A stretch of 64,000 nucleotides of DNA from Spirochaetia bacterium (lineage in GTDB: Bacteria; Spirochaetota; Spirochaetia; DSM-16054; Sediminispirochaetaceae). The DNA is taken from positions 128,001 through 192,000 of the forward strand of contig JAXHMY010000007.1 of assembly GCA_034520965.1 (NCBI GenBank), read 5' to 3'. Below, in pieces: positions 23,647 through 61,898 of the stretch. Position 1 is the stretch's first letter; every line of letters begins with the position of its first letter. The position numbers were made by a program, and so were the translations under genes. A model generated the notes under the pieces. It worked only from the letters and a program-made list of their open reading frames with translations. It searched no databases and had not been told where the DNA came from.

Positions 23647-23757
23647 GGTTTCTATGAAGCGGCATGGCAAATTCCGGTTTTACTCAATTTGCTGGGTCGC
23701 CGATAAGTAGACAATAAGATAAATTTCAAAAAAGAATGTTATAAAAAGGAGTCAAAA

Positions 23758-41346: not shown

Positions 41347-41715
41347 ACTTCACGTAGTGCTGTACGCATAGCTCCATTATACTCCTCTGTTACTCCTTTT
41401 CAAAGCAGGCGACACGACAGATATAAAAGATATTTAAGCCGCGGATGGGGAGGTTATATAAACTACGGATATATTGGGCTGCGCACGGGGGTAAACCACG
41501 GATGGGCGCGGATGGGAGGGGATGGGAGGAGAACTATTTTGGGGAGTTATTAGTTGTTCATCACAGTGTTGGCTGCGATATGTGTATATTGCCGACGGCG
41601 GGCGGTGAATACAGCCAGCCCAATATCAGTGTGCATCTGTGAAAATCCGTAGTTATTTTCTTGTTTCCTGAAGCAGCAGGCGGTTTTGTGCCTCTTTAAT
41701 TATAGGGAGGCGCGT

Positions 41716-42650
41716 ATGCCATCACACTATGATGCCTTGTTCAGGCGACTGTTTGAGAATCCGCAGGTCAGTGCAGATTTTGCTAGTAATTACCTGCCGG
41801 CGGAGTATCAGGAGAAAATCGATTTCAAGAGCGCTTCTATTGACCGGGATATCTATATCGATGAGGTTATAAGGCGAAATTACACCGATCTGCTGTACAG
41901 GTTTGATAAGAAAGAAGGTAGAGGACAGCTGTATTTGTACCTGCTGTACGATCACAAATCTTCACCGGACAAATGGGTGTCCATCCAGCTCCTGCGGTAT
42001 ATCATGCTCATCTACGCAAGTGAACTGAATGAGAACCCAGAAGGTGAATATACTGCCAGAGATTTTTCCGGTGGTCTTTTATCATGGGACTGAAGAGTGG
42101 AAGCCTTCTCTGCAATCTGCCGATTGTATTGATGCTATTAGTAAAGATCATGTCCCGCATTTTAAGCCGCTTCTGTTCGATTTGAACCGCATTGACGATA
42201 AACAGCTACTCGGATCTGTACAAACGGTGGTGGGCTTGCTATCTTTAAAGTATATCAAGCACCGCTTTACCGAGAGCCTGGTTGCTTATTTGCTGCAGGA
42301 GCTGCATAGGCTTCCGCGTGAGAGCAACTTTTTGCATGAGTTCTATATGACTCTGCTTAAGTTCAAAGCCGAGAAGGAGCTGCAGACCTTTCTGCAGATA
42401 GCCAGAGAGATGAATTACCCGGGACATGGAGGAAGATATAATGACACGCGAACAGAGACTTCTAAAAGATGGACGAATTGAAGCTTTACAGGATTCACTT
42501 AAGAGGCTTATAAAGAAGAAGTTCGGTTTGGAAACAGAGGAATCGGTGAAGATAAACCAGATCAAAGACCCCGCAAAGCTGGAGGCCGCTCTCGATGAGA
42601 TCCTAAGCGCAGAGACTAAGCAGCAGGTGCTGGAGAAGCTGGGGCTTTAG
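41716..42650 (+). CDS. Rpn family nuclease paralogue 2, two frameshifts (near 42035 and 42420)
   Basis: Three overlapping ORFs rebuild a full Rpn/YhgA-like protein. Confidence 0.85.
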
Positions 42651-42958
42651 AGCCGGCACGGATGGGGAGGTTATAGAAACTACGGATATATGTGGTGTAT
42701 GCAGGTGGGTCACACAGCTGTGCGCGGATGGGATAATAATTATTATTAAAATTTTAAAGGGAGGCGGCTGTAGAGAGCGGCGCCGCCCGCCAATATATTC
42801 TTTCATCCGTGCATATCCGTAGTTAGTTCCATATCAGTGGTCATCCGCGAATATCTGCGGTTAAATTATATTTCTTATCTTCTTCCATCCGTGTTCATCC
42901 GTAGTTAATTAATTATCTTCCTCATCCGCGGTTGTCGCAGTCGGTTGCATCGTCGTAG

Positions 42959-43588
42959 TTATTTTTCTACCACACAGGTAAGCCAGGTGATAGCCTCGCG
43001 GCCCAGTCCGTCGCCGGTGGTGGCGCTGCTTATGCTGTGAAAGCCGGCGGATTTGGCCTGGTCGATCCACTCATCGGATGCGAGGAGCAGGTAGTATCGG
43101 CCTTTTTCGTCGTAGCCGCTTTCATCGAGGCCGGGGCGGCTTAAGGGTACGGAGAAGAGGAGTTTTCCGGCTTGCGTTAGCAGCTGGTGGAGGTGTTCGA
43201 AGGTAGGGTGCAGCTGCTCTTGCAAGAGGTGCATGAGGGAGGCGACCGCGTAGATGCCGTTGTAGTGCTCGTGCTCTAAGAGGGCAGCGGGCAGCTCATC
43301 GGGTAGGGCGCCTTGAAAGAGGCGTCCTTCGAGTTGGGGATGGAGGCAAAGGGCTCTGTCGATCATCGCGGGAGCGGGGTCGATGCCCTGGACTTCGTAT
43401 CCCTGCCCACACAGATAGGCTGCTTCCCGGCCGGAGCCGCATCCGATTTCGAGTAGTTGTGCGCCGGGGCTGAAAGTGTCGAGCAGCCGCCGGTGCAGAT
43501 CCGCTACTTCGGCGCGTTCGTAGCGTTGTGATAGTTTTTCTGCGTGCTGTTGGTAGTAGCGGATGGTCGAGTTCTTTTCGTGCTTCAT
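42959..43588 (-). CDS. Class I SAM-dependent methyltransferase
   Basis: LLEIGCGSG, GIYAVASLMH. Confidence 0.9.
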   Translation of the reverse strand: MKHEKNSTIRYYQQHAEKLSQRYERAEVADLHRRLLDTFSPGAQLLEIGCGSGREAAYLCGQGYEVQGIDPAPAMIDRALCLHPQLEGRLFQGALPDELPAALLEHEHYNGIYAVASLMHLLQEQLHPTFEHLHQLLTQAGKLLFSVPLSRPGLDESGYDEKGRYYLLLASDEWIDQAKSAGFHSISSATTGDGLGREAITWLTCVVEK

Positions 43589-43907
43589 CTTCCGATTCCC
43601 TTACATTATATGGATAGTATAGTTCATTTGCATTATCCGGTGAATCGGCACGAGCGGGGTCTGATTCACTACACATTTGTTTAGTGGAACTTGCGACGTC
43701 GCAAGCTTTTGCCGCGGTGTGGCTTTGTATTTGGGCTGTAATGAGCTAGAATTTCCAAAAAGGAAGTGTATTTGATGTCGATCTGCTCGCTGGCGGCACG
43801 GATGGGGAGGTTATATAAACTACGGATATATTGGGTGTGCGCACGGGGGTAACACGGATGTGCACGGATGGGAAATGGTTGGGAATTGAAGGGATAAAGT
43901 AAATGGC

Positions 43908-45536
43908 CTATCTATCTCTTTTTATTGTGTATAACCCTAGTATTGGTTTATTCCACACCATATTTTTTAGCCAGTTGCTGAGGGTCTGGTAGTTGGGCAG
44001 GCCGAGTAGTTTGGCGGCCTGACGTTTGTTGCCGCCGGCCTGCTGTAGGGCCCGGGGCAGGTAGTGCTGCATTAGTTCAGTCACCACATTATCAATATTG
44101 AAGTCTTGGTTCAGGGGGCGGTTCAAAAAATGTGGGACGGCTGCGGGAGAATCGGGGGCCGGGTCGGGGCGCACCAGTGATTCTTCGAGGAGGCTGCGGT
44201 TTATTTCGACAGCCGGGCTCCAAAGACAGGCGCGAGTGAGGGTGTTGATCAACTCGCGCACATTCCCGGGCCAGCTGTATTCGCGGATCAGACGCCGGGC
44301 GTCGATTGAAAGCTGCTTGTCTTGCCAGCCTTCAACGCCGGCAAAGCGGGAGTTGAGCTGGCCCAGAAAGTGGTCGGTCAGGGCTTCGATGTCCCGTTTG
44401 CGGCTGTGCAGCGGGGGCAGCTTTAGCACGCCCACGGCTATCCGGTGGAACAGGTCGTTGCGGAAGCTGCCGTCGGCCGACTCGCGGGCCAGGTCGCGGT
44501 TTGTAGCGCTTATTATGCGAAAATCGGAGTGACGGCGGAGGGTGCTGCCGACCCGCTGGAAGGATTGGTCTTGCAGGACCCTCAGCAGAAGGACCTGCAC
44601 ATGCATCGGCAGCTCGCCGATTTCATCCAGAAACAGAGTTCCGCTGTGGGCTTCTTCGATATAGCCGGTTTTATCACTGGCAGCCCCGGTAAAGGCGCCT
44701 TTTACATATCCGAAGAGCTCGGATTCTACCAGGCCCTGGGGCAGGGCGCCGCAGTTGACCGATATAAAGGGGCCGTCCGCCCGGCCGGAGGCGTTGTGGA
44801 TGGCCTTGGCAAACAGCTCCTTGCCGGTGCCGGATTCACCGAGCAGCAGTACGGGCACGTCGAACAGGGCGATGCGACGGGCCCGGTTGACCGTTCTTTG
44901 CATGATTTTGGAGTGATGGATGATTTCGTCAAAGGCCGGGGTGGCCGGGAGCATTTCATCGGGTAAGGCCAGAAGTTTTTCGTCGACCGGGGAGGTGGTA
45001 GTGCTGCGGGGATGATACTCTGCCAAGATATCGAAGGGCAGGATGACCGTCCGCACTCCCTGCTCTTGGCTGGTTTCGATTAAGCGGGCTGGGTAAATGC
45101 TGCTGGCGATCAGGATCCAGGTGGCAGCCATGGCCGGGGTGCCAGGGCTCAGATGAAAGGTGAGGGCCGGAGCCGAATACAAGGGTTTCCCTTCGGCAGC
45201 CGAGCCTGTCTGTGCGGCGGTGCTGTGGCCTCTCTTATGCGGCTTAATTCCATTTAACACCTTAACGGCGTGCTCGTAGATTTCGGCAAACTCGGTGGGC
45301 GAGCTGAGCTCCACCAGGTGTGTCGAGATTTCGAGGTCCGAATGGCGCTGCTGCAGCCAGGCGACATAGGCGGTGGTCTCGGCCTGCGAATAATTGGAAA
45401 GCAGAGTGAGGGATTCGTAGGGCTCGGAGGCGAGGGCCTGGGCGATGGGGCCGGCGCCGACCCCGGGTTCGTGCTGGGAGGCACGGATATCAGTGCCTCC
45501 AAGCCATGCGCATAATCGCGGCGGTTGCAAGCTCAT
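43908..45536 (-). CDS. Sigma54-dependent activator with RtcR/CARF-like N-terminal domain
   Basis: [25 protein letters not shown], intact [22 protein letters not shown]-terminal HTH; real stop may be near 43948 if one A is missing. Confidence 0.88.
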
Positions 45537-45658
45537 AGGGTAATAGTATAACAAATCTTGTAGGGGCACAAGAAAATTTATTATGCTATTGGTAGGTAGG
45601 GGCCGGCGGCTGGCCGCGGGACGTAGCAGCCGGGTTGGGTGGCTGCGTGAAGCCTCGC

Positions 45659-46858
45659 TCACATTATCGCTCCGTAGAGCTCCACCGGATCGCTCAGGTC
45701 CCACAGGGTCCAGTTGCTGCTCATGGCATCGGAGAAACGGCCGATGGAGTCGTAGTCGATGGGGATCCAGTAGCCGGGACGCAGGTAGGCGGTGGTGTAG
45801 GCGACCTCAGTAAGGCTTCCGTTCTGGTCTGCTTCGCCACTGACGTGTATGTAGCCGTAGCCGTTGATCGGGCGGGCCGACCAGACCATGGCAAGGGCGT
45901 GTCCGCTGCCGCCGCCGGGCGGGTAGAAGCTGGCCACCTTGCTGTTCCAGCCCCAGAACTCCAGCAGGCCGCAGGTGTACAGGGCGAAGTCTTCGCAGTC
46001 GCCGCCCTGTTGGGCCAAAAACTCATCCGGGGGCAGGGCGCGGTGGTTCGCTCGGTAGGTAAACAGCCGGTAGGTCTGCCGCTGAAAGGCCTCTACCTCC
46101 CGCCAGCTGAGGTGTCCGTTGCGGTCGGTGTCGGCTCCCATGTAGCGGGCCAGGAGTTGGCCATTGGTCAGGCCGGTACGCTGATAAAAAAGGTGGGAGT
46201 TGATCCAGTAATGGGCCTGCCGCCCGCTGTTGAAGCTGCGGCCTAGCTGGGCAGCCGTTATCCGGCCACTGGAGCTGCGGGAGAGGCGGTAGCCGCGGTA
46301 GGTCCAGCTGGCCGGCGGAGTGGGGGCAGTGCTTCTCTCAGCTCGCCCGCCATCAGACCCGTGAGCCCTGTCGGCCTGGTAAGATTCGGATTCATCGGCC
46401 CTCGAACCGCCGGCGCCGTCGCTAAGGTACTCTGTCAGGACTCCGGAGCTAAGCAGTGCCCATAGGATTACTGCCAGCCCTGCGATAGTGAAGCTGAGCC
46501 GGAAGAACTCGGCCAAGCCGCTCGAACCGGTGTTTTTGGCCGCGGCGGTGGTGTTTTTCTCGACCGGCCGCGGAGGGGCTGCCCTCGGACTCGGGGTTGG
46601 GTTCCGGGTTTCGGGCGGGGCCGCCAAAATGTGGGCCTGCCCTTCGACGATTTGCAGCCTCCGCAGGGCAAATGTGCGCCGTTCATGGCGCAGGTAACAG
46701 TAGGTCCGCACGTAATTATTTCCCCAGCGCTCGTAAAACTCCAGCGGCACGATGATACGCTGCGATACCTCGCCTTCGCCGTTTTCATACTGTATTCGGA
46801 CCGATTGATGTCCGTTCTGCAGCGCCTCTAAGGCGCGGCGTGTCCGTAACTCTTCCAT
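45659..46858 (-). CDS. WYL domain - TM helix - transglutaminase-like cysteine protease fusion
   Basis: [67 protein letters not shown]-hand-like loop; [20 protein letters not shown]. Confidence 0.75.
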
Positions 46859-46869
46859 ACCAACCTATA

Positions 46870-46885
46870 TGCAATTTTCGTACCA
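46870..46885 (-). promoter_or_regulatory. Sigma54 promoter toward the WYL-transglutaminase gene
   Basis: Minus strand TGGTAC-GAAAA-TTGCA. Confidence 0.6.
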
Positions 46886-46892
46886 ATTCTCT

Positions 46893-46908
46893 TGGCATGG
46901 AAATTGCA
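46893..46908 (+). promoter_or_regulatory. Sigma54 promoter toward the outer-membrane protein gene
   Basis: TGGCAT-GGAAA-TTGCA. Confidence 0.7.
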
Positions 46909-47030
46909 TTTTATGTTTTTGGGATGCATGTCCTGTAGTCGATTTCCGGCCGTCGGAAAGCCGCAGGGCCAGAGCCAGTAGCCGGCTGCAGCGTGCAGCC
47001 TGACAAGTAAACCAGCGATGGAGGAAGTGT

Positions 47031-47612
47031 ATGCGCACTTTGTTGACGATTGTGTTGTTGTTTGGGTTTGCCGGGGGAGGTCTTTTTGCCCAGGCGGACG
47101 CACAGGGGCGGGGATTTATGTTTCAGATAGGTTTGGGAGCCGCTGAGATAGAGTGGCCCCAGGGGTTGAAAGAGCTGATGGACTATGCCGAAGGCCAGCC
47201 GGATATAGACCGGGTGAAGGTGCATCTGAACCTGGGCCTGGGGGCGGCAGTGAGCGAAAATCTGTACCTGTTGGGCAGTCTGCAGGGCTACGGCGACCGC
47301 CTGGAGGACAGCTATGGTGACTATGTCCAGATAAATGCGTATCTGTTTGGCCTGGGGCTGCGCTGGTATCCCTTTGTAGCCGGACTGGTGCTGGGCGGCG
47401 ACATCGGGGCCGCCCGCCTGGTGGCTATGGGCTCGGGGGTAGAGAGCAATGCCTCCGAATGGGGCAACGGCTTGGGCTTTACGGCCGGCTACGATTTCGG
47501 CGGCCGCCCGACCGGCGTGTCCCTGATTCTGGGGCTGCGGTTCGACGGCATGAGCGTCGAGGGCGAGTCGGTGGGCACCGCGGCCCTGTTTCTGAACCTG
47601 GCTTTTAAGTAA
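47031..47612 (+). CDS. Small outer-membrane beta-barrel protein
   Basis: GGAGG RBS, signal peptide, Gly/aromatic beta strands, LFLNLAFK end. Confidence 0.75.
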   Translation: MRTLLTIVLLFGFAGGGLFAQADAQGRGFMFQIGLGAAEIEWPQGLKELMDYAEGQPDIDRVKVHLNLGLGAAVSENLYLLGSLQGYGDRLEDSYGDYVQINAYLFGLGLRWYPFVAGLVLGGDIGAARLVAMGSGVESNASEWGNGLGFTAGYDFGGRPTGVSLILGLRFDGMSVEGESVGTAALFLNLAFK

Positions 47613-47704
47613 GTGAAAATAAAATATTTTGTTGCCGGTACAAATTATTTTATAGAAAGGGGCTGAGAAAGTCCGGCTCGCCCCGTTGCGGGGCAATTCT
47701 TTCC

Positions 47705-47720
47705 TGGCACGCTTCTTGCA
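47705..47720 (+). promoter_or_regulatory. Sigma54 promoter upstream of the second prsW-like gene
   Basis: TGGCAC-GCTTC-TTGCA, full consensus. Confidence 0.75.
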
Positions 47721-47954
47721 TAAAGTAGGGACCGGGCCTCAAGACCGGCGAGCCTGAGAGGGTCAGGTAAAGAGTGCATCTTATGTAAAAATGATATTTA
47801 AAAAACAGATGTAAAAAAGTGGCTTTTTTTGTCGCAGATGGGGAGGTTATATAAACTACGGATATATGGGGTTTCAGCAGGGCGGGCAACACGGATGGGG
47901 ATGGTTGGGAAAGACCGTGATTGACGGATGTGTTATAGTTGAGAAAAAGGGATT

Positions 47955-49481
47955 GTGAAAATGGTGTTGATTATTTCGGTGGCAACCAGTCTTATCTGGA
48001 TAAAAATTCTGAAAACCTTTGATGATGCCCAGGGGCTGAAGAGCAAGCGGACGGCGGTGAGCGGGTTTTTTCTGTACGGGCTGCTGAGCGTGCCGCTGGT
48101 GCTGCTGCTGTACGCATTGGCCGGACCGCTGGTGTATCCGATTACCCGCGATTCGGCGGTGCTGGAGAACCTGTTTTTGGTGGGGCCGGTGGAAGAGCTG
48201 GGCAAGTTCCTGGTTTTCTATCTGGTGGCTGTGGGCAGCGGGTCGATCCAGGAGCCCCGCGACGGGGTGCTGCACGCCGCTTCGGTGGGGCTGGCCTTTG
48301 CGGTGGTGGAGAACGTGTTTTACTCGGTATACGGCCTGGAATTGCTGCTGTACCGCTCTATGCTGACCACCGCCGGCCACATGAGTTATGCGGCCATCTG
48401 GGGTTTTGCGGCGGGGGTGTATTTGTACACACGGCCGGCGTTTATGCGGGCTGCGGCAGCGACTGCGGCTTCCCGGGGCTCAGCTGCCGGAGGGGCTGTG
48501 CCGCTTAAGCCTGGTGAATCGGAGAGCTTTGCCGACGGAGCGGCCTACGGGCCATCACTGGTGGTGAGTGCAGTGGCTTCGGCGGCCCTGCTGCACGGTC
48601 TGTACAACAGCTTTCTCGACCTGGGGGCCCTTGGTGCGGCCCTGCTGCTGGATGCCGGGACTGTTCTGCTGGCACTGGTCGGCCTGTCGCACCTGAAGAA
48701 ACTCTCCCCCTTCGCAGAGTTTCCGTTCTCGCAGTACCGCTTGGCTATTCCCCAGTTGAAGGAGGCCCTGCGGCACAATCCGGATAACTTCGTACTGCAC
48801 AAGCGCCTGGGGCTGCACTACATCCGCAGCCGGGACACCGCCAAGGGACGGCGCCACTTGCGACGGGCCTCCCACATCAGGCCGCGCGAGCTGTCCAGCC
48901 GCTTTTATCTGGCGCTGCTGGACTACCTGTTGGCGGGCCCGGGCAGACGAAGCCAAAGACAGCGGGCGAGGGGTGTGGTACCGGTGCTCTGGTCGCAGAG
49001 CAGGCTGATCGGCGGGGCTACACTGCGGCTTGGCAATAAAGCTGCAAACGATCCTGCAGCTGCTCCCGCCGATGAGGCCCGCCAGGCCCTGCACCGCCTG
49101 GCTGTGCGGATACCCCTGAAAAGCCTGAGACAGCTGCGCCGCCAGGTGAAACAGGTTTTTGCGGTACATCCGCGCCGCCGCGAGCTGTTTGAAATATGCG
49201 AGGAACTGGTTGCCGGTAAACGCGGTAAGAGCAGCAGCCCCCTGGACCGTGACGGGGTACTGCACCGCGGCCGGGAATATCCTGCGCACGAGGAGAGGCT
49301 TCGCGGGAAGGCGGCTCAAGAGGGATTGGCTCGCGAGTGTCCGGCCCTCGCGTCCGACACGAAGTCGGGGAGAATTTACTTTCCCGAGCCTCCCCTGGCG
49401 GCGGTGAATCCGCAGCTGGCCGCTAGGAAGATTCGTGCGACCGGCAGGATCATCGAACAGAAACGGCGGGAGATCGGCTGA
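47955..49481 (+). CDS. PrsW-family intramembrane metalloprotease with TPR-like C-terminus
   Basis: VEELGK, FAVVEN, GHMSY, HGLYN; paralogue of the 22444 gene. Confidence 0.85.
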   Translation: MKMVLIISVATSLIWIKILKTFDDAQGLKSKRTAVSGFFLYGLLSVPLVLLLYALAGPLVYPITRDSAVLENLFLVGPVEELGKFLVFYLVAVGSGSIQEPRDGVLHAASVGLAFAVVENVFYSVYGLELLLYRSMLTTAGHMSYAAIWGFAAGVYLYTRPAFMRAAAATAASRGSAAGGAVPLKPGESESFADGAAYGPSLVVSAVASAALLHGLYNSFLDLGALGAALLLDAGTVLLALVGLSHLKKLSPFAEFPFSQYRLAIPQLKEALRHNPDNFVLHKRLGLHYIRSRDTAKGRRHLRRASHIRPRELSSRFYLALLDYLLAGPGRRSQRQRARGVVPVLWSQSRLIGGATLRLGNKAANDPAAAPADEARQALHRLAVRIPLKSLRQLRRQVKQVFAVHPRRRELFEICEELVAGKRGKSSSPLDRDGVLHRGREYPAHEERLRGKAAQEGLARECPALASDTKSGRIYFPEPPLAAVNPQLAARKIRATGRIIEQKRREIG

Positions 49482-49721
49482 ATAGCAGAACAGGCAAGCG
49501 ACAGTGAACCAGACCTCCGGTAACAGCCGCACTTGTGGTCGACGCTGTGCCGGCACGGATGGGCGCGGATGGAAGGGGGAACAATTCTAAATATCTTGAA
49601 GGCAGGTGCCTCCCGACCTAATATCTGTGTTCATCCGTGTAAATCCTTAGTTAAATTTTTTTCCTGGTTTTTTTGAAGCAGAAGGCGCCTTTTGTGCCTC
49701 TTTTACTATAGGGAGGCGCGT

Positions 49722-50726
49722 ATGCCAGCACACTATGACGCTTTGTTCAGGCGGCTGTTTGAAAAGCCGGAGGTCAGCGCAGATTTTATTCGTAATTATC
49801 TGCCGGCGGGCTATCAGGGGAAAATAGATTTCGAAAGTGCTACTATTGATCCGGACACCTATATCGATGAGGTTCTCCGACGGAATTACACTGATCTGCT
49901 GTACAGGTTTGATAAAAGAGAAGGCGGCGGACCGCTGTATGTGTACCTGCTGTACGACCACAAATCATCACCGGACAAATGGGTGTCCATTCAGCTGCTG
50001 CGTTATATCATGCTCATCTACAGGAAGGAGCTGGAGAAGAAACATCCGCCGACGATACTACCGGAGGTGTTTCCGGTGGTCTTCTATCATGGGACTGAAG
50101 AGTGGACCCATTCACTGCAATGCGCCGATACTATTGATGCGCAGCGCAGAGAACATCTGCCGCATTTTAAGCCGTTTCTGTTTGATTTGAACCGTATTGA
50201 TGATAAACAGCTGCGCGGATCTGTACAAACGGTGGTGGGCTTGCTATCTTTAAAGTATATCAAGCAGCGCTTCACCGAGAGCATAGTTGCTTACCTGCTG
50301 CAAGAGCTGCATCGGCTACCGCGTGAGAGTAGTTTTTTGCATGAGTTCTATATGACTCTGATTAAGTTCAAAGCAGAGGAGGAGCTGCAGAGGTTTCTGC
50401 AGAAGGCCAGAGAGATGAATTACCGGGATATGGAGGAAGATATAATGACGCGCGAACAGAGATTGTTAAAAGAGGGTCGGGCCGAAGGGCTTGAAAAAGG
50501 ACTTCAAGAGGGCCGTGTCGAAGGACTTCAAGAAGGACGAGGTGAGGGCCGTGTCGAAGGCCTGCAAGACTCGTTGAAACGACAACTGAAGAAGAAGTTC
50601 GGTCTGAAAACGGAAGAATCGGTGAAGATAAACCAGATTAAAGAGCCAGCTAAATTAGAATCGGCCCTGGATGAGATAATAACCGCAGAGACCAAGCAGC
50701 AGGTGCTAGACAAGCTGGGCCTGTAG
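49722..50726 (+). CDS. Rpn family recombination-promoting nuclease (intact paralogue 3)
   Basis: HYDALFR, TDLLY, YLLYDHKS, PVVFYHG..W, EG-repeat linker, DUF4351-like C-terminus. Confidence 0.9.
   Translation: MPAHYDALFRRLFEKPEVSADFIRNYLPAGYQGKIDFESATIDPDTYIDEVLRRNYTDLLYRFDKREGGGPLYVYLLYDHKSSPDKWVSIQLLRYIMLIYRKELEKKHPPTILPEVFPVVFYHGTEEWTHSLQCADTIDAQRREHLPHFKPFLFDLNRIDDKQLRGSVQTVVGLLSLKYIKQRFTESIVAYLLQELHRLPRESSFLHEFYMTLIKFKAEEELQRFLQKAREMNYRDMEEDIMTREQRLLKEGRAEGLEKGLQEGRVEGLQEGRGEGRVEGLQDSLKRQLKKKFGLKTEESVKINQIKEPAKLESALDEIITAETKQQVLDKLGL
50445..50726 (+). CDS. Putative intragenic small protein RpnS (antitoxin)
   Basis: GGAGG at 50432 then in-frame ATG at 50445; equivalents at 39335 and 42441. 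Confidence 0.65.
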   Translation: MTREQRLLKEGRAEGLEKGLQEGRVEGLQEGRGEGRVEGLQDSLKRQLKKKFGLKTEESVKINQIKEPAKLESALDEIITAETKQQVLDKLGL

Positions 50727-51208: not shown

Positions 51209-51224
51209 TGGCATGCTTATTGCT
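51209..51224 (+). promoter_or_regulatory. Sigma54 promoter upstream of the lipoprotein pair
   Basis: TGGCAT-GCTTA-TTGCT. Confidence 0.7.
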
Positions 51225-53249: not shown

Positions 53250-53840
53250 ATGGACACTTACAATCTTTCATTTACTTTCGGTGGTTTACTGCTTGCCGAA
53301 TCGACGGAAATTGCGCATGCATTCGTACAGACTGAGGACTGGGCAGTGGTGCGACAGAGGGTGATGAATGAAAACATACTACAAAAAACACGAATGCGGA
53401 GCAGAAAACGTTATTACGAAGGCTTATCGAAGAGATTCAAGGCGGCGTACCAATGGGAATTAGAGTATATAGCCAATGCCGAGTTAGAAACGAAAAAAGT
53501 TGTTCTGTTTTTGATTGCGTGTCGTAATTATGAGTTCATTCGTAATTTCTACATTGAGGTGGTGCGAAAAAAGCTGCAGGAGAATGATTTCACCCTGCTT
53601 GAATATGAGTATCATGCTTTTTTTGAGCATAAGCTTGAAGAACACCCGGAACTTAATGCATTGTCCGACAGCAGCAGAAAAAAGATAAGAGAAATTGTGC
53701 TGAAGGTGCATCGAGAGGCCGGAATTATGGATAAAGCAAAAGGCAAAACAAAGCTCCTGTTTCCGCTTGTTCCGCAGGAAATGAGGGAGTTGTATAAAAG
53801 GAACGGCGCGGAGGATGAGTTAGAGATTCTGTTGTTCTAA
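53250..53840 (+). CDS. brxA: BREX protein BrxA (DUF1819)
   Basis: YNLSFTFGGLLLAES, ENILQ; directly upstream of brxB-brxC. Confidence 0.88.
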   Translation: MDTYNLSFTFGGLLLAESTEIAHAFVQTEDWAVVRQRVMNENILQKTRMRSRKRYYEGLSKRFKAAYQWELEYIANAELETKKVVLFLIACRNYEFIRNFYIEVVRKKLQENDFTLLEYEYHAFFEHKLEEHPELNALSDSSRKKIREIVLKVHREAGIMDKAKGKTKLLFPLVPQEMRELYKRNGAEDELEILLF

Positions 53841-53879
53841 GTGTGAACGTATAACTGAAGGTAAAAAAGAGGGGCTGAA

Positions 53880-54494
53880 GTGACGTCTTACAATATTAAT
53901 TTCGAAAACATCTACCACATAGTCAGCAACGAGAAGTTTCTGCGAATGGAAGGTCTGGGGAATGAGGTTCCGTTTTTTATTCAGACCTACGATATAAAGC
54001 TGCAAGACAAGGTCTATTCCGAGATACATACGCTGAGTAAGCGCCTCGAGACACACGGAATCTCGGTCCTAACTGTAGGTATATATGATGTTGCCATAGA
54101 TTACCTGCAGGAAAGTGGAAAGCTTGAGAAACTGTTTAAGGCGGAGCAAAGAACAGATAAAGCGAAATTCGAGCGTGAGCTTGGGAATAAAATTCTCAAT
54201 CCGCAGAAAATTATAGTACCGCGGATGATGGACATGCGGAGAGAGGCGGAAGCTCAATTGATACTGCTCCATCAGGTGGGCGAGGTTTTTCCGTATATCC
54301 GCACACATACATTGCTGCAGCAACTGCAGAATCATTTTAGCGATATTCCTTTGGTACTTTTTTACCCGGGGGAATATGTGACCTCATATCAGGAGGGTTT
54401 TTACCTGTCACTGTTCGGCGATCCGAACTTCAAAGGTGATTACTACCGTGCATTCAAATTAGAAGATTACAAAATTCGTGGGAGGATAGAATAG
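53880..54494 (+). CDS. brxB: BREX protein BrxB (DUF1788)
   Basis: FLRMEGLGNEVPFFI, VFPYIRTH, LVLFYPGEY, YYRAF. Confidence 0.92.
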   Translation: MTSYNINFENIYHIVSNEKFLRMEGLGNEVPFFIQTYDIKLQDKVYSEIHTLSKRLETHGISVLTVGIYDVAIDYLQESGKLEKLFKAEQRTDKAKFERELGNKILNPQKIIVPRMMDMRREAEAQLILLHQVGEVFPYIRTHTLLQQLQNHFSDIPLVLFYPGEYVTSYQEGFYLSLFGDPNFKGDYYRAFKLEDYKIRGRIE

Positions 54495-57400
54495 ATGGCG
54501 AGGCTTGGCGATATTCTGGTTCGCGATATACACCGTACAATTGACGGGGTTATCAAGGCTGATGATAAAACGCATATTTTACAAGAGGTTGATGAGTATG
54601 TGCTGACCAATGAGATACAGAAGTATCTCGATAAGGTGATGCGAGGGTACCGGGATTCGATTGAGAGAAGCCAAACCAACTCTCCATATCCCTGGAACGG
54701 AGTATGGATCAGCGGGTATTTTGGATCCGGTAAATCCCATCTTCTCAAGATTCTCTCCTATATTTTAGACAATCAAACAGTGGACGGAGAGTCGCTGTTG
54801 AAAAAGTTTCTCCCCAAAGTGCGTGATGACATAGTACGGGGAGATTTCGAGCAGGCGGCCAGGATCCCCTCGGTGAGCATCCTGTTCAATATTGACCAAC
54901 AGGCGGATGCGGCTAAATCGAAGGATGAAAATGCCCTGTTGTTTATCTTTGAGAAGGTATTCAACCGCATGCGGGGTTTTTTAGAGGATGATCCGGTCAT
55001 TGCCAATTTTGAGGAAGACCTTTCAAAAAAGGAGCGTTACGAGGAGTTCAAAGCATTCTACCAGCAGCGAAATGGGGTGAGCTGGGTTGAGGATCGCAGC
55101 GACGTGATGCTTTTAGAGCAAGACCGCTTTGCCGAAACATGGATGGAGTTTGATGGGTGTAGCCGCGAAGAGGCCGGTCGCTTGCTGGAGCGTTACGAAA
55201 ACTCATATTCGCTTTCCGTAGAGGGGTTTGCAAAACGGGTAAAAAGCTGGCTGGATGCCCAGGATGATTCTCGTTTTCGGCTCAATTTTTTTATTGATGA
55301 GGTGGGGCAGTTTATAACCGGATATCCCCGGCTTACTCTGAACTTACAGACGATTGCCGAATCTCTGGGAACTATTTGTCAGGGCCGGGTATGGATATTC
55401 GTCACCAGCCAGGAGAGTCTGAATACTGTGGTGGGGGACAGTAACACCGAGCAGTCATACGACTTTTCAAAAATACGCGATCGGTTTCATTTTCGAATTC
55501 CTCTCAGTTCTGCCGACGTAAAAGAGGTCATTCAGCGGAGGCTTCTGGAGAAAAACGAAGAGGGGCGTGAGAAGCTTGGCGAGCTGTTTATGCATGAGCG
55601 AGAGAGTTTTAAAACCCTGTTCAGCTTTCAGCAGGGGGTAAAGGAGCTGCATTTCAAGGGTAAGGAAGATTTTATTCTCTCGTATCCCTTTCAGGCTTAC
55701 CAGTATCATTTGCTGCAGCAGGCCTTAAAAGGACTTTCGGAGCACAATGCGTTTATGGGCCGGCATGTCTCGCGGGGTGAGCGTTCGATGTTGGAGATAT
55801 TTCAAGATGTCGGCCGTGATATAGAGAGTAAAGAGCTGTTTACCTGGGCGGCCTTTGACCAGATGTTTGCGGGGATTCGAAATACCTTACAGAGTTCGCT
55901 GCTCAATGCGATAAACCTGGCCGAGCGCAATATTGACAAGCAAATGGCGGTGCGGCTGCTAAAAATCCTGCTCCTAGTAAAATACATAAAGGATTTTACC
56001 GCGACCGTAGACCACCTTTCTGTACTGCTACTTTCTAATATGGATCAGGATTTAGCAAAACTGAAAGAGGAGGTGCGCGAAGCACTAAACCTGCTCGAGC
56101 GTCAAAGCTATATCGAGCGCCATGGTGAGGAGTATGAATACCTTACCAACGAAGAGAAGGACGTAGAGGAGGAGATTAAAAACGCCCATGTGGATATCGA
56201 TGAGATGCGCAAATTCTTTGACGATGTTATTTTTGGCAGTGTTATCAAGGGCAGCAAGATTCGCTACGGTGAAAATGGTCAGGACTATCCCTTTCGTAAA
56301 TTGATCGACGGAGAGTCGATGAAGTCCGGTACGCATGCCGATATCTCAATCAATATTATCAGCCCCTTTCATCCGAACACCGGTGATAAAAACACTATTC
56401 TCCAGCAGTCTGTCGGTAAAAAAGAGATGCTGGTGTTTCTTGTTACCGAGCCGCGCTTTGCCGGGGACCTTACCCTGTACTTCAAAACCCAAAATTACAT
56501 TCAAAAAAAGCAGGGTCATGTGAGCAACGCCACCCGTAAGCGCATCATTTCGGATAAACAAAACCGAAATTATGAGCGGCGTGATCAGTTGACCCGTGAG
56601 ATGAGAGATGCCCTGGAAACTGCCGAGATATACGCCTTCGACAGTAAGCTGGATATAGGAAAAAAGAGTCCCAAGGACAGAATTGAAGAGGCCTTTCAGC
56701 TGTTTATACAGACTGCTTATCCGTATCTGGGTATGCTGAAAAATACCTACTCGGAAGATCAGTTGTCCAAAATTCTTTTTCCCAGCGATGCCGATGCCCT
56801 GGACGGATCCGGCGGATTAGCTATGCAGGAGGATGAAAAGGAGCTGTACAACTATATTGTGAGAGTTGATGCGGGAAATGAGAAGGTGGTGCTGAGCAGC
56901 CTGATGTATGAGTTTCAGGGTGGTCAGCATGGGTGGTACCCGTTTGCCATTCTCTGCCTGGTGGCCAAGCTCTACATGCGGGATGCAATTGAGATTTTCA
57001 TCGGAACCAAGCCACAGGATACTGCACGGGTATACGATATTCTGCGGAAAAATCGTGATCTCGAGCAGGTGGTAATCAAGCCGGCGGCTCAGTTTCGGGA
57101 TGAAGAGGTAGAGGCATTAAAACGTTTCTATAAAGAGTTTTTTCTGTTCAACAGCACCAAGGAGAAGGGGAAGGAAGTTGCGATTGAATTCAAAAAATCG
57201 CTCAATAATGAGCTTGAGAATGTGCAGACTTATTTAGCCCAGAAAGTTCAGTACCCTTTCTTAGAAAAATTAGAGCCCTATTACTCTCAATTGAACGAAC
57301 TTGTTCATAAAAATGAGTACAGTTATTTCTTGAAAAATAGAGAGGAGTTTGAAGAAGATCTTCTGTTTGGAAAAGAGGAGATCTATAATCCGATAGAGAA

Positions 57401-58007
57401 GTTTTTTAAGGCACAGCAGAATGAGCTGTGGAAGAACCTACGTGATTATCTCAAGACCCATGAGCCGAATCTTTCCGAACTCAATATGCAGAGCGAGGTT
57501 CAGAAGGCCTGGGACTTGCTTGATTCTGAGGAGCCCTATAAACAGAGCCGAGTAAAAAAGGCGAAGGATATTGTCGAGGCAATAAAAGAAAAAGAGAATG
57601 AGCAATTGCCTATAGTTATTAAGAAGGCGAAGGCTACAGTAGATAAGTATCTTGCTGATCTAAAGGAGATCGAAGAGTTCGACAAATTGTCTCAAGGGGA
57701 CAAGCAGGAGATTATCAAACCGTTTGAGCTGTTACGCGATAACGAGATCGAGCAGCATAGTATTTTTCCGGTGATTCGGGACAAGGCAGTTGAGAAGGGT
57801 GAACGTCTATTCGAAGAGGCCCGTGATCGAATACACACGAAGACGAACCCAGAGAAAAAGATCCTCTACGCCTCTGCCTCCGAGAAAAAGGTCAATTTTT
57901 CTAAGCCGGAGCTGGTGAGTGAAGAGGATGTAAATGCATACGCAGAACAGTTGCGAAAGCAGTATAAGAATTTGATCAAGGCAGGAAAGAGGATTGGATT
58001 GTCATAG
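54495..58007 (+). CDS. brxC: BREX P-loop ATPase BrxC
   Basis: IDGVIKADD, GVWISGYFGSGKSH, IDEVGQF, VTSQE, FSKIRDRF. Confidence 0.95.
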   Translation: MARLGDILVRDIHRTIDGVIKADDKTHILQEVDEYVLTNEIQKYLDKVMRGYRDSIERSQTNSPYPWNGVWISGYFGSGKSHLLKILSYILDNQTVDGESLLKKFLPKVRDDIVRGDFEQAARIPSVSILFNIDQQADAAKSKDENALLFIFEKVFNRMRGFLEDDPVIANFEEDLSKKERYEEFKAFYQQRNGVSWVEDRSDVMLLEQDRFAETWMEFDGCSREEAGRLLERYENSYSLSVEGFAKRVKSWLDAQDDSRFRLNFFIDEVGQFITGYPRLTLNLQTIAESLGTICQGRVWIFVTSQESLNTVVGDSNTEQSYDFSKIRDRFHFRIPLSSADVKEVIQRRLLEKNEEGREKLGELFMHERESFKTLFSFQQGVKELHFKGKEDFILSYPFQAYQYHLLQQALKGLSEHNAFMGRHVSRGERSMLEIFQDVGRDIESKELFTWAAFDQMFAGIRNTLQSSLLNAINLAERNIDKQMAVRLLKILLLVKYIKDFTATVDHLSVLLLSNMDQDLAKLKEEVREALNLLERQSYIERHGEEYEYLTNEEKDVEEEIKNAHVDIDEMRKFFDDVIFGSVIKGSKIRYGENGQDYPFRKLIDGESMKSGTHADISINIISPFHPNTGDKNTILQQSVGKKEMLVFLVTEPRFAGDLTLYFKTQNYIQKKQGHVSNATRKRIISDKQNRNYERRDQLTREMRDALETAEIYAFDSKLDIGKKSPKDRIEEAFQLFIQTAYPYLGMLKNTYSEDQLSKILFPSDADALDGSGGLAMQEDEKELYNYIVRVDAGNEKVVLSSLMYEFQGGQHGWYPFAILCLVAKLYMRDAIEIFIGTKPQDTARVYDILRKNRDLEQVVIKPAAQFRDEEVEALKRFYKEFFLFNSTKEKGKEVAIEFKKSLNNELENVQTYLAQKVQYPFLEKLEPYYSQLNELVHKNEYSYFLKNREEFEEDLLFGKEEIYNPIEKFFKAQQNELWKNLRDYLKTHEPNLSELNMQSEVQKAWDLLDSEEPYKQSRVKKAKDIVEAIKEKENEQLPIVIKKAKATVDKYLADLKEIEEFDKLSQGDKQEIIKPFELLRDNEIEQHSIFPVIRDKAVEKGERLFEEARDRIHTKTNPEKKILYASASEKKVNFSKPELVSEEDVNAYAEQLRKQYKNLIKAGKRIGLS

Positions 58008-58209
58008 AGATATTTAGATGGTGTTCATTGAGAAGAACCGAGTAGAACGTCAATTCAAGAATATAACACTGATGTTATATAGTCTCAAGGAATGTTATTA
58101 CTATTAAGATTCCAGGTATAGGATTTACCGGTAGCATGGTGACGTTATATTTAGATACCATGGTAATTACATCTATTTTAGAGGCGATGTTAAAAAAGGG
58201 AGGTTGCAG

Positions 58210-59049
58210 ATGGAAACAAACCAGCTCGAAAGCTGGACAAACAGAGGCGCAATTCAATCGTCGATAAACTCACATGAGGCCATTCGCTCTGCATTATCTT
58301 CAAGTACCGGACTATCCAATAGTAATTACGAAGTATACCTCCAGGGATCCTGATAAGAATAGTACAAATATCCGGGGAATAGCGATGTCGATGTGGTAGT
58401 ACAATTAAATAGCTGTTTCTACTCTAATCTCTCCGATTCTGAAAAATCTCAATTAGGATTAATACCAGCATCATACGGTTTAAGCGACTTTCGCCACAAT
58501 GTAATGGACGCATTGGTCAATCGATTTGGTTCAGCGAACGTTGTGCAAGGAAACAAATCAGTTAAGATACAATTTAATTCTACCGGTGTCGTGCCTGCAG
58601 ACGTCGTTGTGTGTATTGAATACCGACACTATTCAGCACTCAGGGTTTTATATACTGGAATGGGATTCCTAACCAACGCAGGACAAGAACTCATTATTAA
58701 CTATCCAAAGCTTCATTATGAAAACGGTACAAAAAAATCAGACCGAACCAGTGGGGCATATAAGAAAACCGTACGTATGTTCAAGAATGCAAACCGATAT
58801 TTTAGAGAGCGGTACCAAGCACGAACTGTTCCTTCGTATCTTATAGAATGTTCACTTTATAATATAAAAGATTCGCTGTTTAGTTTTCAGTTGAGGGATA
58901 GGTTCTACAAGATAGCGTCACTACTTGCAGAAGATGATGTGAGTAATTTTGTTTCTCAGAATGGGATAGGTACACTTTGGGGGAATCGTCCCGATCAGTT
59001 TGAAGCGAGTTTACTTCGAAAGTTCGCTTGCAATATGCAGAAACTTTAG
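58210..59049 (+). CDS. CBASS CD-NTase (CdnE-like), interrupted by a compensating indel pair at 58352-58378
   Basis: GGAGG RBS; YEVYLQGS[YKNSTNIRG]NSDVDVV, GNKSVK, ADVV, INYPKLHYENG..K, YKKTVRMFKN, SYLIE..LYN. Confidence 0.85.
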
Positions 59050-59055
59050 GGGGGG

Positions 59056-59622
59056 ATGATGCACGGATATACATATAAGACCAAAAATCGGGGCCAAACC
59101 TATTTCATTATGGTGTTTATTTCAATTGTTGCGTTTGATTTACTCAGTACCGGATTGGACAGAGCTCAGCTCGAATTCCCTTGGTACCTCTCCATACCTT
59201 CGGCTTCTGCATTATTCGGTGCAATCTACTACATGTACTCACAGTGTTTATGGAAAATGTCTATACTGGATTATCCACCATTAATAGCTGGAAGATGGAA
59301 GGGACAAGTTAATTCCTCCTGGTCAGATCACCCTACAGAGGCAACGCTTACGCTTAAACAGACTTGGAATAAGATTTCGGTACGACTGGAAACGGAATAT
59401 TCAGATTCGTATAGCCTCGGAGCTTTTTTTGCATCCGAAGGAGATACACACTTGCATTATGAGTACTTGAACACCCCAAGAAACAACTCACCGTCTACGC
59501 AGAACACTCACCACGGGACTGCAAAGATTATCCAAAAGAGCAGAACTAAGCTCATCTGCCAGTATTATAGTGACCGAGATCGTAGTAATATTGGAACTAT
59601 ATATCTTCAGAAAACTAATTAA
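59056..59622 (+). CDS. cap15: CBASS Cap15-type effector (2TM + beta-barrel)
   Basis: Two TM helices, GRWKG, QTW.KISVRLET..S.S.S, YEYLNTP, HHGT; directly after the CD-NTase. Confidence 0.85.
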   Translation: MMHGYTYKTKNRGQTYFIMVFISIVAFDLLSTGLDRAQLEFPWYLSIPSASALFGAIYYMYSQCLWKMSILDYPPLIAGRWKGQVNSSWSDHPTEATLTLKQTWNKISVRLETEYSDSYSLGAFFASEGDTHLHYEYLNTPRNNSPSTQNTHHGTAKIIQKSRTKLICQYYSDRDRSNIGTIYLQKTN

Positions 59623-59850
59623 GCGCATTTTTTAATGATGAATAACTGCGATTTGCCGGTGTTTTTGACTTTTACTTTCATTTGCCAGGTTTTCTGTATA
59701 CCAAACGGTTGGTGTTGATCTGGTATTGAATATGGCAAAAAGATTTTTAAATTGGAGAACCGAAATTAAACTGATTAAAGAATTTCTAAAAAGATCATTA
59801 AAATTAATGGGGTAAGCCAGCAGGTAAGCGATGACTAAAGAAAATGGAAT

Positions 59851-60000
59851 ATGAAATTAAATAATAAAGAAGAGTATCGTAAAGCTAACAGCATGGTTAA
59901 TTGTCTATTTGAAGTTCAGTCAGACTCAAATGATGGGATTACATAAAATAAACTCGTAGATCTTATAGCCGAATATGAGGAAGAGAATGTTCCTTTTGGG
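59851..60000 (+). pseudogene. Degenerate HigA-like N-terminal fragment
   Basis: MKLNNKEEYRKA...*NKLVDLIAEYEEENVP, similar to the 62860 ORF. Confidence 0.45.
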
Positions 60001-60062
60001 AAATATGGTTTTGATAAAAAGGTTAAACATCATATGAGTAAACAATTAAGAGGTATAAGTAT

Positions 60063-61898
60063 ATGGATTTAAACAAATTAAAAAAATTCTCCCGCAACAT
60101 GCGCGTGAAACTGATAGAACAGATTGAACAGCGTCTTAATTATGTGGTTGGGGTGGAAGATGAATATACCCGGGCGCATGCTGGTGAGATTAAGATAATT
60201 AATAAGCTCATTAATAAAGAAGGGAAGGAACAGTTTCTCGAAGAGGTTGCGTACACCTGGTTCAACAGACTTGCCGCACTTCGATATATGGATGTAAAAG
60301 GCTACAACAAGACGAAGATTGTATCGCCTTCTGAGGGAGAATCACAATCGCAGCTCCTTGCCGTGATAAAACAGGGAAAGCTGCCGGAGGAAATCAAGCG
60401 GGTATCTGATCAGGTATTCGGATATCTCGATGGCAAAATAAAGGCACAACAACCGGACCGGGAAGCATACCGCACGGCTCTGCTTGCGATGTGTAATGAT
60501 CTGGGGCGTATTCTTCCTTTTCTCTTCAAGCAGGTTGACGACTGGGCTGCTCTGCTGTTACCGACGGACCTTTTGTCTCCCCAATCTATTATTGCAGAAT
60601 TCCGTGAAGGCATGGGTGATGAGGAGTGCAGTGATGTAGAGATTATCGGCTGGCTCTATCAGTTCTATATTGCGGAGAAAAAGAACAAGGTTATCGGTGA
60701 TCTCAAGAAAAATAAAAAGATAGAAAAAGAAAATATTCCTGCTGCTACCCAGCTCTTTACTCCACATTGGATTGTCCGGTATATGACTGAAAACTCCCTT
60801 GGGCGTCTATGGATGTTGAATCGTCCAGAGTCGAAGATCATTGAAGGGATGGAATATTACATTCCATCGGAGGATATCGAGGACGATTTTCTTATAATAA
60901 GAGGCCCTGAAGAAATCAAAATCTGCGATCCTGCATGTGGAAGTGGCCATATGCTTACCTACGCGTTTGATCTTCTCTACCGAATGTATGAGGAGGATGG
61001 TTATTCGTCAGGAGAAATTCCAGAGCTTATTATCAGAAATAACCTTTATGGGCTCGAGATTGACGAGAGAGCGGGGGAGTTAGCGGCGTTTGCCCTTACG
61101 ATGAAGGCCCGCGAGAGGGATCGGTATTTTTTTAGACGTGGTTTATATCCGATGATACGGGTGCTTCATCCGGTGGATCTAAGCGATTTCTCAGAGCTGA
61201 AGGAACTTGTGAATTTCCTTTCCGGAGATGACATTGACCGCGATACGGTTCTCCATGATCTCAGGCTTTTCAAAGCGGCGGATAATTTCGGGTCACTACT
61301 AAGGCCAAGTTTAACTGAATTGGAATGTGAGAAGGCACTGAAAAGACTTGATGAGTATGAAGCAGGGTTAGCGAATCCTTCTCTGGAGGAAATGGAACTC
61401 GTAACCCGCTGCAGAAACGCTTTAGGCCATGCACGCATGCTCTCCCGGAAGTATCATGTGGTCATAGCCAATCCGCCGTATATGGGGAACAAAGGCTTAA
61501 ATAATAATCTGAAAAGTTTACTGCAGGATGAGTATTTAGATGTAAAGTCGGATCTTTTTTCAGCATTTATAGTAAGAAATACCGAACTTACATTACCACA
61601 AGGACAACTTGGTTTTATGACACCTTTTGTTTGGATGTTCATATCTTCCTATGAAAAACTACGATTATTCATGATTGATAATAAAACGATTACCTCTCTT
61701 GTTCAGTTAGAGTATTCGGGTTTTGAAGGAGCTACTGTTCCTGTATGTACCTTTACATTAGAGAATGCCCATAAACCTAAATTCCGAGGTGGGTATGTTC
61801 GATTGGCTGATTTTAAGGGAGCAGCTAAGCAGGGTCCTAAGGCATTAGAGATTATTCAGTCATATCGTGATTCAAGGAGATCAAATGATATTCACTAA
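60063..61898 (+). CDS. pglX: BREX adenine methyltransferase PglX, N-terminal half only
   Basis: EVAYTWFNR, IIGWLYQFY, IPAATQLFTPHWIV, DPACGSG, NPPY; 611 aa versus roughly 1150-1200 aa for typical PglX. Confidence 0.92.
   Translation: MDLNKLKKFSRNMRVKLIEQIEQRLNYVVGVEDEYTRAHAGEIKIINKLINKEGKEQFLEEVAYTWFNRLAALRYMDVKGYNKTKIVSPSEGESQSQLLAVIKQGKLPEEIKRVSDQVFGYLDGKIKAQQPDREAYRTALLAMCNDLGRILPFLFKQVDDWAALLLPTDLLSPQSIIAEFREGMGDEECSDVEIIGWLYQFYIAEKKNKVIGDLKKNKKIEKENIPAATQLFTPHWIVRYMTENSLGRLWMLNRPESKIIEGMEYYIPSEDIEDDFLIIRGPEEIKICDPACGSGHMLTYAFDLLYRMYEEDGYSSGEIPELIIRNNLYGLEIDERAGELAAFALTMKARERDRYFFRRGLYPMIRVLHPVDLSDFSELKELVNFLSGDDIDRDTVLHDLRLFKAADNFGSLLRPSLTELECEKALKRLDEYEAGLANPSLEEMELVTRCRNALGHARMLSRKYHVVIANPPYMGNKGLNNNLKSLLQDEYLDVKSDLFSAFIVRNTELTLPQGQLGFMTPFVWMFISSYEKLRLFMIDNKTITSLVQLEYSGFEGATVPVCTFTLENAHKPKFRGGYVRLADFKGAAKQGPKALEIIQSYRDSRRSNDIH

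Follow-up and report, generated by a model that had tools for sequence, protein, structure and literature searches.

The P0001 gene lies within a 64,000-nucleotide stretch of a contig from a Spirochaetia bacterium (the whole stretch is called the window here). Its product consists of an N-terminal WYL domain, a proline-rich linker, a single predicted transmembrane helix, a second linker and a domain with the transglutaminase/cysteine-proteinase fold, which carries an EF-hand loop and a predicted Cys-His-Asp triad (Table 1). Pfam identified the WYL domain (PF13280, residues 17-70) with 31 bits against a cut-off of 21.8, and Transglut_core (PF01841, residues 259-339) with 25.9 bits against a cut-off of 23. 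No HTH or WCX domain was matched in the Pfam scan at E ≤ 0.1, and neither is present in the model. P0001 is thus not an HTH-WYL regulator, and it does not belong to the wHTH-WYL-WCX transcription factors. PADLOC returned WYL matches only. In the AlphaFold2 model (mean pLDDT 82.7), which had been proposed as a check, the WYL barrel and residues 183-399 are confident, and the helix is placed at residues 115-137, flanked by two disordered linkers of low confidence. The first-pass annotation had listed a WYL-like domain without an HTH, a Pro-rich linker, one helix, an EF-hand-like loop and a Cys-His-Asp set, and each of these could be located in P0001 by Pfam, the model or the alignment.

Table 1. 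Features of the P0001 locus. Positions are those of the window.
Feature	Position	Strand	Remarks
P0001 gene	45659..46858	-	399-aa WYL-TM-cysteine protease-like ORF
WYL domain, residues 1-72 (Pfam 17-70)	46643..46858	-	Pfam, model, alignment
Pro/Ala-rich linker, residues 73-114	46517..46642	-	predicted cytoplasmic, disordered; pLDDT under 50
Single predicted transmembrane helix, residues about 115-141	46436..46516	-	predicted N-in/C-out
Second low-complexity linker, residues 142-182	46313..46435	-	predicted periplasmic
Transglutaminase/cysteine-proteinase-fold domain, residues 183-399	45662..46312	-	pLDDT 93 when folded alone; LapG Z 10.8
Single EF-hand loop, residues 243-254	46097..46132	-	between helices 233-241 and 252-265
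GDCED motif, predicted nucleophile C288 (45995-45997)	45989..46003	-	65/65 rows; 162/165 proteins
H320, predicted catalytic histidine	45899..45901	-	65/65 rows; aligns with BTLCP His
D368, predicted third triad residue	45755..45757	-	64/64 rows reaching D368; insertion before D368 relative to BTLCP
Sigma-54 -24/-12 motif of the P0001 gene	46870..46885	-	ATG begins 11 nt after motif
Back-to-back sigma-54 motif facing the divergent gene	46893..46908	+	motif scan
Perfect sigma-54 motif upstream of prsW	47705..47720	+	motif scan
Sigma-54 motif preceding two lipoprotein-like genes and BREX	51209..51224	+	motif scan
CARF-AAA+-HTH sigma-54 activator, RtcR_PspF2 type	43908..45536	-	directly downstream of P0001; PADLOC E 7e-175
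Divergent signal-peptide protein	47031..47612	+	recurs in 8/62 loci
PrsW-family intramembrane protease with TPR	47955..49481	+	recurs in 7/62 loci
BREX type 1 genes brxA, brxB, brxC, 611-aa pglX ORF	53250..61898	+	CBASS-like cyclase and Cap15 inserted

A protein search yielded 65 homologues of P0001, 55 of them with a precomputed PF13280 match; the named ones are mostly from Spirochaetota. The family was enlarged with a profile of the catalytic domain (best 120 of 145 matches), and its 165 proteins were assigned to architecture classes by simple hydropathy rules, without SignalP. By these rules, 79 have a WYL domain and a helix, and in 46 both are replaced by a signal-peptide-like start. The others are partial or unclassified (28), have a helix without WYL (11) or have WYL with a sub-threshold helix (1). 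The GDCED motif was found in 162 of the 165 proteins, and the WYL-helix-enzyme fusion is maintained among proteins that are only about 30% identical. Two separate metagenome contigs carry copies 93% identical to P0001, one full length (L049) and the other spanning residues 1-387 (L050). Two outcomes named beforehand as fatal to the fusion, an N-terminus that does not score as WYL and an assembly artefact, were not seen: PF13280 scores, and an artefact is ruled out by the WYL-bearing homologues, the two metagenome copies and the 79 fusions. In the ESM Atlas, an automatic WYL/transglutaminase name is attached to a cluster of 52 members, which may be P0001's own. No longer fusion (700-2000 residues) was found among 638 candidates, which is weak evidence. 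Phage copies were rejected as well: a viral scan gave seven loci with short weak matches, and none passes the family profile.

In four close pairs, dN/dS ranges from 0.07 to 0.32 for the WYL domain and from 0.11 to 0.23 for the catalytic domain, consistent with purifying selection on both. In at least 4 of 38 copies the two domains lie in different frames, and the L013, L030 and G439 copies are also interrupted or miss part of the core; such interrupted copies stem from decay or assembly error. Named hosts of the WYL-less forms are Bacteroidales and some spirochaetes. On an unrooted tree of 46 rows, nine of the secreted rows group in a single clade (100/99), and about three changes are required to explain the secreted label. 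Four secreted members (L025, L078, L082 and L084) have a repetitive Ile-Pro-rich stretch between the signal peptide and the catalytic domain. The spread of the family is patchy, with 9 carriers among 61 relative genomes. A phylum sample of 401 genomes contained 2 carriers and 13 activator holders; because only 4-8 candidates were scored per genome in that sample, we relied on the 61 relatives instead.

The WYL domain of the model has the Sm-like SH3 barrel fold. The closest structural matches are PafBC (Z 11.7, rmsd 2.6, 80 residues aligned) and CapW (Z 11.6), followed by BrxR (Z 10.8) and DriD (Z 9.0). Mutants of PafB, single or combined, implicate residues R181, Y196, R204, R208, R211 and R214 in ssDNA binding, and the WCX domain of PafBC serves dimerisation and lines the ssDNA tunnel (PMC11804915). 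These six positions were mapped onto P0001 through the PafC alignment, assuming a ten-residue offset between PafB and PafC (R211/R201), and five are kept. R34, R57 and R61 (PafB R181, R204 and R208) are arginine in 58/58, 57/57 and 58/58 rows, and R67 (R214) is arginine in 58 of 59. Y49 (Y196) is tyrosine in 46 and phenylalanine in 10 of 57 rows. The exception is the R211 position, which is A64 in P0001 and is occupied by arginine in 43 and alanine in 14 of 58 rows. The ssDNA groove thus appears largely intact, with one arginine missing from the subclade of P0001, and the WYL domain, predicted to be cytoplasmic, likely binds single-stranded DNA or RNA. The alanine at the R211 position and the absent WCX domain count against this.

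A hydropathy peak of at least 1.6 lies between the two domains in 55 of the 57 WYL-bearing homologues. The excess of lysine and arginine falls before the helix in 39 of the 57, after it in 2, and is tied in 16. The positive-inside rule orients membrane helices, and because of this charge bias and the signal-peptide-like starts of 46 relatives, we place the WYL domain inside and the enzyme outside. P0001 is predicted to be a single-pass protein of the inner membrane, in keeping with the single N-in/C-out helix noted earlier. It is not a lipoprotein, as there is no cysteine after the helix, and only 3 of the 57 homologues have one near it. If the hydrophobic stretch were not a true span, or were inverted, the enzyme would be cytoplasmic and could act, for example, on DNA-protein cross-links. 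The topology is derived from hydropathy and charge counts, the 16 tied homologues show no bias, and Rad4/XPC is among the distant fold relatives of the catalytic domain. We nevertheless regard a cytoplasmic enzyme as very improbable in view of the 39 to 2 bias and the exchange of the WYL domain and helix for export signals.

In the model of the catalytic domain, C288 opens helix 288-301, H320 opens strand 320-327, and D368 follows strand 362-367. A cysteine at the start of a helix with the histidine and aspartate on the following strands, as seen in the model and the alignment, is the layout of the transglutaminase superfamily. Transglut_core is matched by 34 of 46 members at E ≤ 0.01. The closest enzyme fold is LapG (Z 10.8, rmsd 3.4, 134 aligned), and a 16-residue stretch around GDCED matches LapG nearly letter for letter, with GGGDCEDFA common to both. 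When ten BTLCPs were combined into a profile, it aligned with the family over 76 columns, the cysteine and the histidine among them (hhalign, 98.5%), and this match stops before the aspartate. The Cys-His spacing (28-35 in 44 rows) agrees with BTLCPs, as does the GDCED motif; the His-Asp spacing does not, being 34-48 in the family against about 15 in BTLCPs (15 for H226-D241 of HvyA; PMC4241560). Peptidase_C93 (PF06035) has no match in P0001 and is matched by 1 of 46 members at E ≤ 0.01, whereas all ten true BTLCPs from the same scan pass. These two results exclude the family from the BTLCPs (Peptidase_C93). The first-pass assignment of GDCED to the LapG/BTLCP type thus holds for the motif and for the LapG fold, but not for membership in Peptidase_C93. 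By sequence, we consider the domain to be a separate LapG-like family with a single EF-hand added.

The consensus EF-hand is a 12-residue loop between two helices. The loop of P0001 has this form, is single and unpaired, and is a putative calcium site. D243 and G248 are each conserved in 64 of 65 rows and E254 in 63, and EF-hand_5 is matched by 18 of 46 members. The acids of the GDCED motif of LapG bind calcium; those of the family are invariant (65/65 rows). Calcium has been described near the active site of LapG (PMC4359373).

Protease, cross-linking and isopeptidase chemistry are indistinguishable from fold and sequence. The domain is likely a protease that cuts envelope proteins in the periplasm. 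Alternatively, it could be a cross-linking transglutaminase, a deamidase or an isopeptidase acting on the cell wall, and would then make the envelope harder or looser. CPR-C4 (Z 9.4), PeiW (9.3), TglA (9.1) and PeiP (9.0) come close behind LapG, 3isr and PeiP rank slightly above LapG by Foldseek E-value when the domain is searched alone, and the members match Transglut_core far more often than Peptidase_C93. We give these other chemistries a small chance, as the near identity to LapG around GDCED and the match to the BTLCP profile speak for a protease.

Sigma-54 promoters have a -24/-12 consensus, and the motif scan was based on it. The whole genome contains 34 sites with at most one mismatch, and four of these lie within 4.4 kb in the window, facing the P0001 gene, the divergent outer-membrane-like gene, prsW and the lipoprotein-BREX block. 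For the family, we took the 46 WYL-fusion loci whose upstream sequence spans 120 nt or more and dropped 8 near-duplicates, leaving 38; the window locus is among those dropped and is represented by L049. A motif is present within 130 nt upstream in 22 of the 38 loci, compared with 24 of 396 other ORFs of the same loci, 90 of 19000 shuffles and 20 of 2791 ORFs of the genome. The other 16 loci have none in the sequence covered, and many are on short contigs. Among the WYL-less signal-peptide forms scanned over the same stretch, none has the motif. In 12 of the 22 loci, the ATG begins 11-14 nt after the motif, an arrangement seen at one of the 34 genome sites, which is that of the P0001 gene. The ATG would therefore lie at or just after the expected transcript start, and genes of the P0001 type are predicted to often yield leaderless mRNA. 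Five loci fetched later showed the motif in four cases and the 11-nt spacing in three (one locus is 87% identical to an earlier one).

Further upstream, a dyad of the form AACY-NN-RGTT, often paired 20-22 nt apart, was seen in 7 of 23 cases, shuffles giving no more than 3. The dyad is present in 16 of the 38 loci and in 70 of 6628 control windows, counts in which the loci of discovery and of counting largely overlap, and the paired form is also present in one later-fetched locus. Paired dyads lie 120-300 nt upstream of the WYL domain in L008, L011, L014, L052, L053, L056, L066, L074, L077, L092 and L170. The dyad is absent from the window, where the activator belongs to a different subgroup. 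One subgroup of RtcR_PspF2 activators may use the paired dyad as an enhancer. Two more placements of the sigma-54 motif were noted. In L021 (5634-7172), a perfect motif with 11-nt spacing precedes a gene for a 227-aa lipoprotein-like protein, followed by a WYL-less helix-plus-catalytic form. In the source genome, motifs resembling the sigma-54 site precede two ORFs (G000:C2:522755 and C2:388362) with N-termini that look similar to sigma-70-type factors.

The gene directly downstream of P0001 encodes the activator. RtcR_PspF2 is the best full-length PADLOC model for it and for all eight activators of other loci, and the RtcR NCBIfam equivalog cut-off is not reached (326 against 650 bits). Its end, at 43908-43970, comes about 12 residues later than in the L051 relative, as if a small frameshift had occurred after the HTH. 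An activator gene is present in 21 of the 38 loci by a profile seeded from eight loci and in 24 of 62 by clustering; 17 of the 38 have none in the sequence covered, many being short contigs. Among the 61 relatives, which were picked by kinship alone, are not independent and include two carriers that supplied rows of the activator profile (G000 and G425), 8 of 9 carrier genomes have the activator within about 2 kb, and 11 of 52 non-carriers hold one anywhere.

The rpoN gene is present in 59 of the 61 genomes and in 16 of 16 family relatives. It was not found in the source assembly (G000) or in G425. Since the pyrG-, hpf- and hprK-like neighbours of rpoN are also missing from the source assembly, which is 86% complete, an assembly gap is the simplest reading, and we reject a true loss. 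With respect to a sigma-54 regulon, the -24/-12 motif and the bEBP are present, and the rpoN region is absent from the assembly. G425, which is 94% complete, also carries the fusion family and the activator. We infer that transcription depends on sigma-54, and the P0001 gene is likely switched on by the neighbouring CARF activator upon nucleic-acid damage. The sigma-54 motif, the predicted leaderless start and the linked activator had escaped the first-pass annotation, and they form the best-supported part of the mechanism.

The neighbourhood resembles a defence island, as had been suspected. The window contains BREX type 1 genes with a CBASS-like pair, but BrxC recurs in only 5 of 62 loci. 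Other recurring neighbours in the 62 loci are an outer-membrane-like protein (8), PrsW-TPR (7), a UvrD-like helicase (6) and a small lipoprotein (5). Toxin-antitoxin, HNH, AbiE and ADP-ribosylglycohydrolase genes, and also housekeeping genes, occur among the nearest three to five ORFs. This context is at most suggestive of a defence role. The divergent signal-peptide protein is likely a small outer-membrane beta-barrel: one member of its cluster matches PF13505, and the window copy has no Pfam match.

Several details of the island were recorded. The CBASS-like cyclase and a two-helix Cap15 effector (58000-59622) lie between brxC and pglX, and about 65 profile positions are missing at the N-terminus of the cyclase ORF, with stops in the upstream frame. 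At 60063-62820, a 317-aa ORF showing a RAMA-like match comes after the pglX ORF; because pglX has only 611 residues and the RAMA-like ORF is separate, the methyltransferase appears to be split or interrupted. An Rpn/YhgA-like transposase gene recurs at least three times around the island (38837-50726), as copies or fragments; the one at 49692-50726 looks whole. Secreted WYL-less members also occur near conflict genes (L088, L089, L091, L100, L085 and L027), which include downstream reverse transcriptase or conflict histidine kinase genes, adjacent TOTE genes and a downstream type III CRISPR operon.

A second PrsW-TPR gene in the window, followed by a lipoprotein-like Transglut_core gene, is found at 22444-24786. 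In L064, PrsW-TPR and lipoprotein-like Transglut_core genes lie just downstream of the WYL fusion. Such pairs suggest a module of envelope proteases. The substrates of PrsW share the topology predicted for P0001, and this, together with the recurrence of PrsW-TPR genes and the perfect sigma-54 motif of the window prsW itself, would fit signalling from outside to inside. Self-cleavage or cleavage by the co-regulated PrsW would free the WYL domain into the cytoplasm, where it could titrate ssDNA or modulate other WYL/CARF regulators in the style of an anti-sigma factor. We consider this improbable. PrsW was not seen in the sequence covered of 55 of the 62 loci, the residues around the helix are unconserved so that no shared cleavage site is visible, and a free WYL domain would have no output domain.

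The reading that we tentatively favour, with a good if not quite even chance of being right, is that P0001 is an envelope protease induced by damage or infection, with its WYL heads clustered by single-stranded nucleic acid. Two gates can be envisaged. At the first, the activator, by analogy with RtcR, would bind broken RNA or a nucleotide signal and fire the sigma-54 promoters of the island, often giving leaderless mRNA. The genes for the outer-membrane protein, PrsW, the lipoproteins and BREX would then be co-induced with the P0001 gene. At the second, one strand of nucleic acid would bind several WYL domains and cluster their helices, and the calcium-loaded catalytic domains brought together in this way would be activated or concentrated. 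An envelope protein co-induced with P0001, or a protein of the cell surface, for instance one that serves as receptor for phages or in conjugation, would be the likeliest substrate. These assignments of ligand, gating and substrate are speculative. The more specific scheme of a one-component transducer, in which single-stranded nucleic acid in the cytoplasm switches on the periplasmic protease across the membrane after arming by the CARF sigma-54 activator through leaderless transcripts, is possible and somewhat doubtful. The first-pass annotation had likewise inferred an inside-out transducer, from nucleic-acid sensing to periplasmic proteolysis or crosslinking.

The linkers bear on how the second gate could operate. 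The stretch from WYL to the helix varies from 27 to 135 residues and that from the helix to residue 219 from 57 to 102, and mean column conservation is 0.20-0.26 in the linkers (0.20 in the first) versus 0.52 and 0.60 in the domains. Because the linkers are long, variable, unconserved and of low confidence, a rigid mechanical relay or allostery is unlikely, and clustering or a tether would suit such linkers better than a rigid relay of the LapD kind. The WYL domain could therefore be a tether and not a switch. The exported, calcium-loaded enzyme would already be active, with induction as in the favoured reading, and WYL would merely anchor it near nucleic acid at the membrane, for example at a phage entry site, a mating pore or a damaged fork. 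The linkers allow this, the 46 secreted WYL-less relatives belong to a family with almost universal GDCED, and the roughly three changes on the tree make the head exchangeable. Since the catalytic motif persists in secreted forms that lack WYL, the domain may work without gating, and tight control of transcription could be enough. WYL has been described as an accessory ssDNA-binding module in Pif1 (10.1101/163188). A flexible tether would leave the same traces in sequence as activation by clustering, so the sequence data do not favour the tether. The fusion has been kept across highly diverged proteins, which counts against it. We consider a pure tether unlikely, though a serious contender.

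WYL domains have so far been known on cytoplasmic regulators and nucleic-acid enzymes, and P0001 is predicted to set one across the membrane from an enzyme. If clustering by nucleic acid does control the protease, a cell could alter its surface upon detecting foreign or damaged nucleic acid, and prokaryotic immunity would have an envelope-remodelling arm gated by nucleic acid twice, first at transcription and again after translation. Leaderless sigma-54 transcripts may, as a speculation, aid expression when translation is damaged. The ligand and regulon of the RtcR/PspF2 CARF activators were left open in the 2014 survey, and for these activators the locus offers concrete promoters and target genes as well as a dyad that may be an enhancer.

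The closest functional parallel is LapG/LapD, which shares the transglutaminase fold, the Cys-His-Asp triad, a nearby calcium and periplasmic action under a cytoplasmic signal (PMC4359373). LapG, however, is a soluble protease, and the c-di-GMP receptor that holds it is a protein of its own, whereas P0001 has sensor and enzyme in one chain. P0001 also differs from LapG and the BTLCPs in its WYL sensor, its EF-hand and its longer His-Asp spacing. No LapD or adhesin gene was found among the scanned neighbours. HvyA of Caulobacter is likewise an exported enzyme, a BTLCP with a triad that governs the cell surface and susceptibility to phage; it is a signal-peptide protein under cell-cycle control with no sensor domain, and it makes cells phage-sensitive (PMC4241560).

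On the sensor side, P0001 resembles PafBC, DriD, BrxR and CapW in the WYL fold (Z 9-11.7) and keeps most of the ssDNA-binding residues, and, as with regulators of the BrxR and CapW type, BREX and CBASS genes are nearby. Unlike these proteins, it has neither HTH nor WCX, its output is predicted to be an enzyme across the membrane, and its gene is itself a predicted sigma-54 target. For the activator, the nearest known systems are RtcR-rtcBA and the RtcR-like activators at the head of defence superoperons. It differs from RtcR in type and score, and its predicted targets are envelope proteins and BREX; neither rtcA nor rtcB was matched among the scanned neighbours. Fusions of WYL to a catalytic domain were listed by Makarova in 2014 (Pif1-type helicase, Cas3, HNH, Mrr, TerB), and the partners listed are nucleic-acid enzymes or binders (PMC4012209). 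Supplementary File 6 of the survey has 8 WYL+TM entries (HTH regulators, proteins of 132-239 aa and one three-helix protein) and contains no TGase, BTLCP, papain or protease term. WYL and transglutaminase are both mentioned in PMC7159879, where the mentions are unrelated. The first-pass annotation did not recall the WYL-TM-protease architecture as described, and we found no account of it in the literature searched, which omits most subscription journals. The component parts of P0001 are known from these systems; the predicted joining of a WYL domain across the membrane to an enzyme appears to be new.
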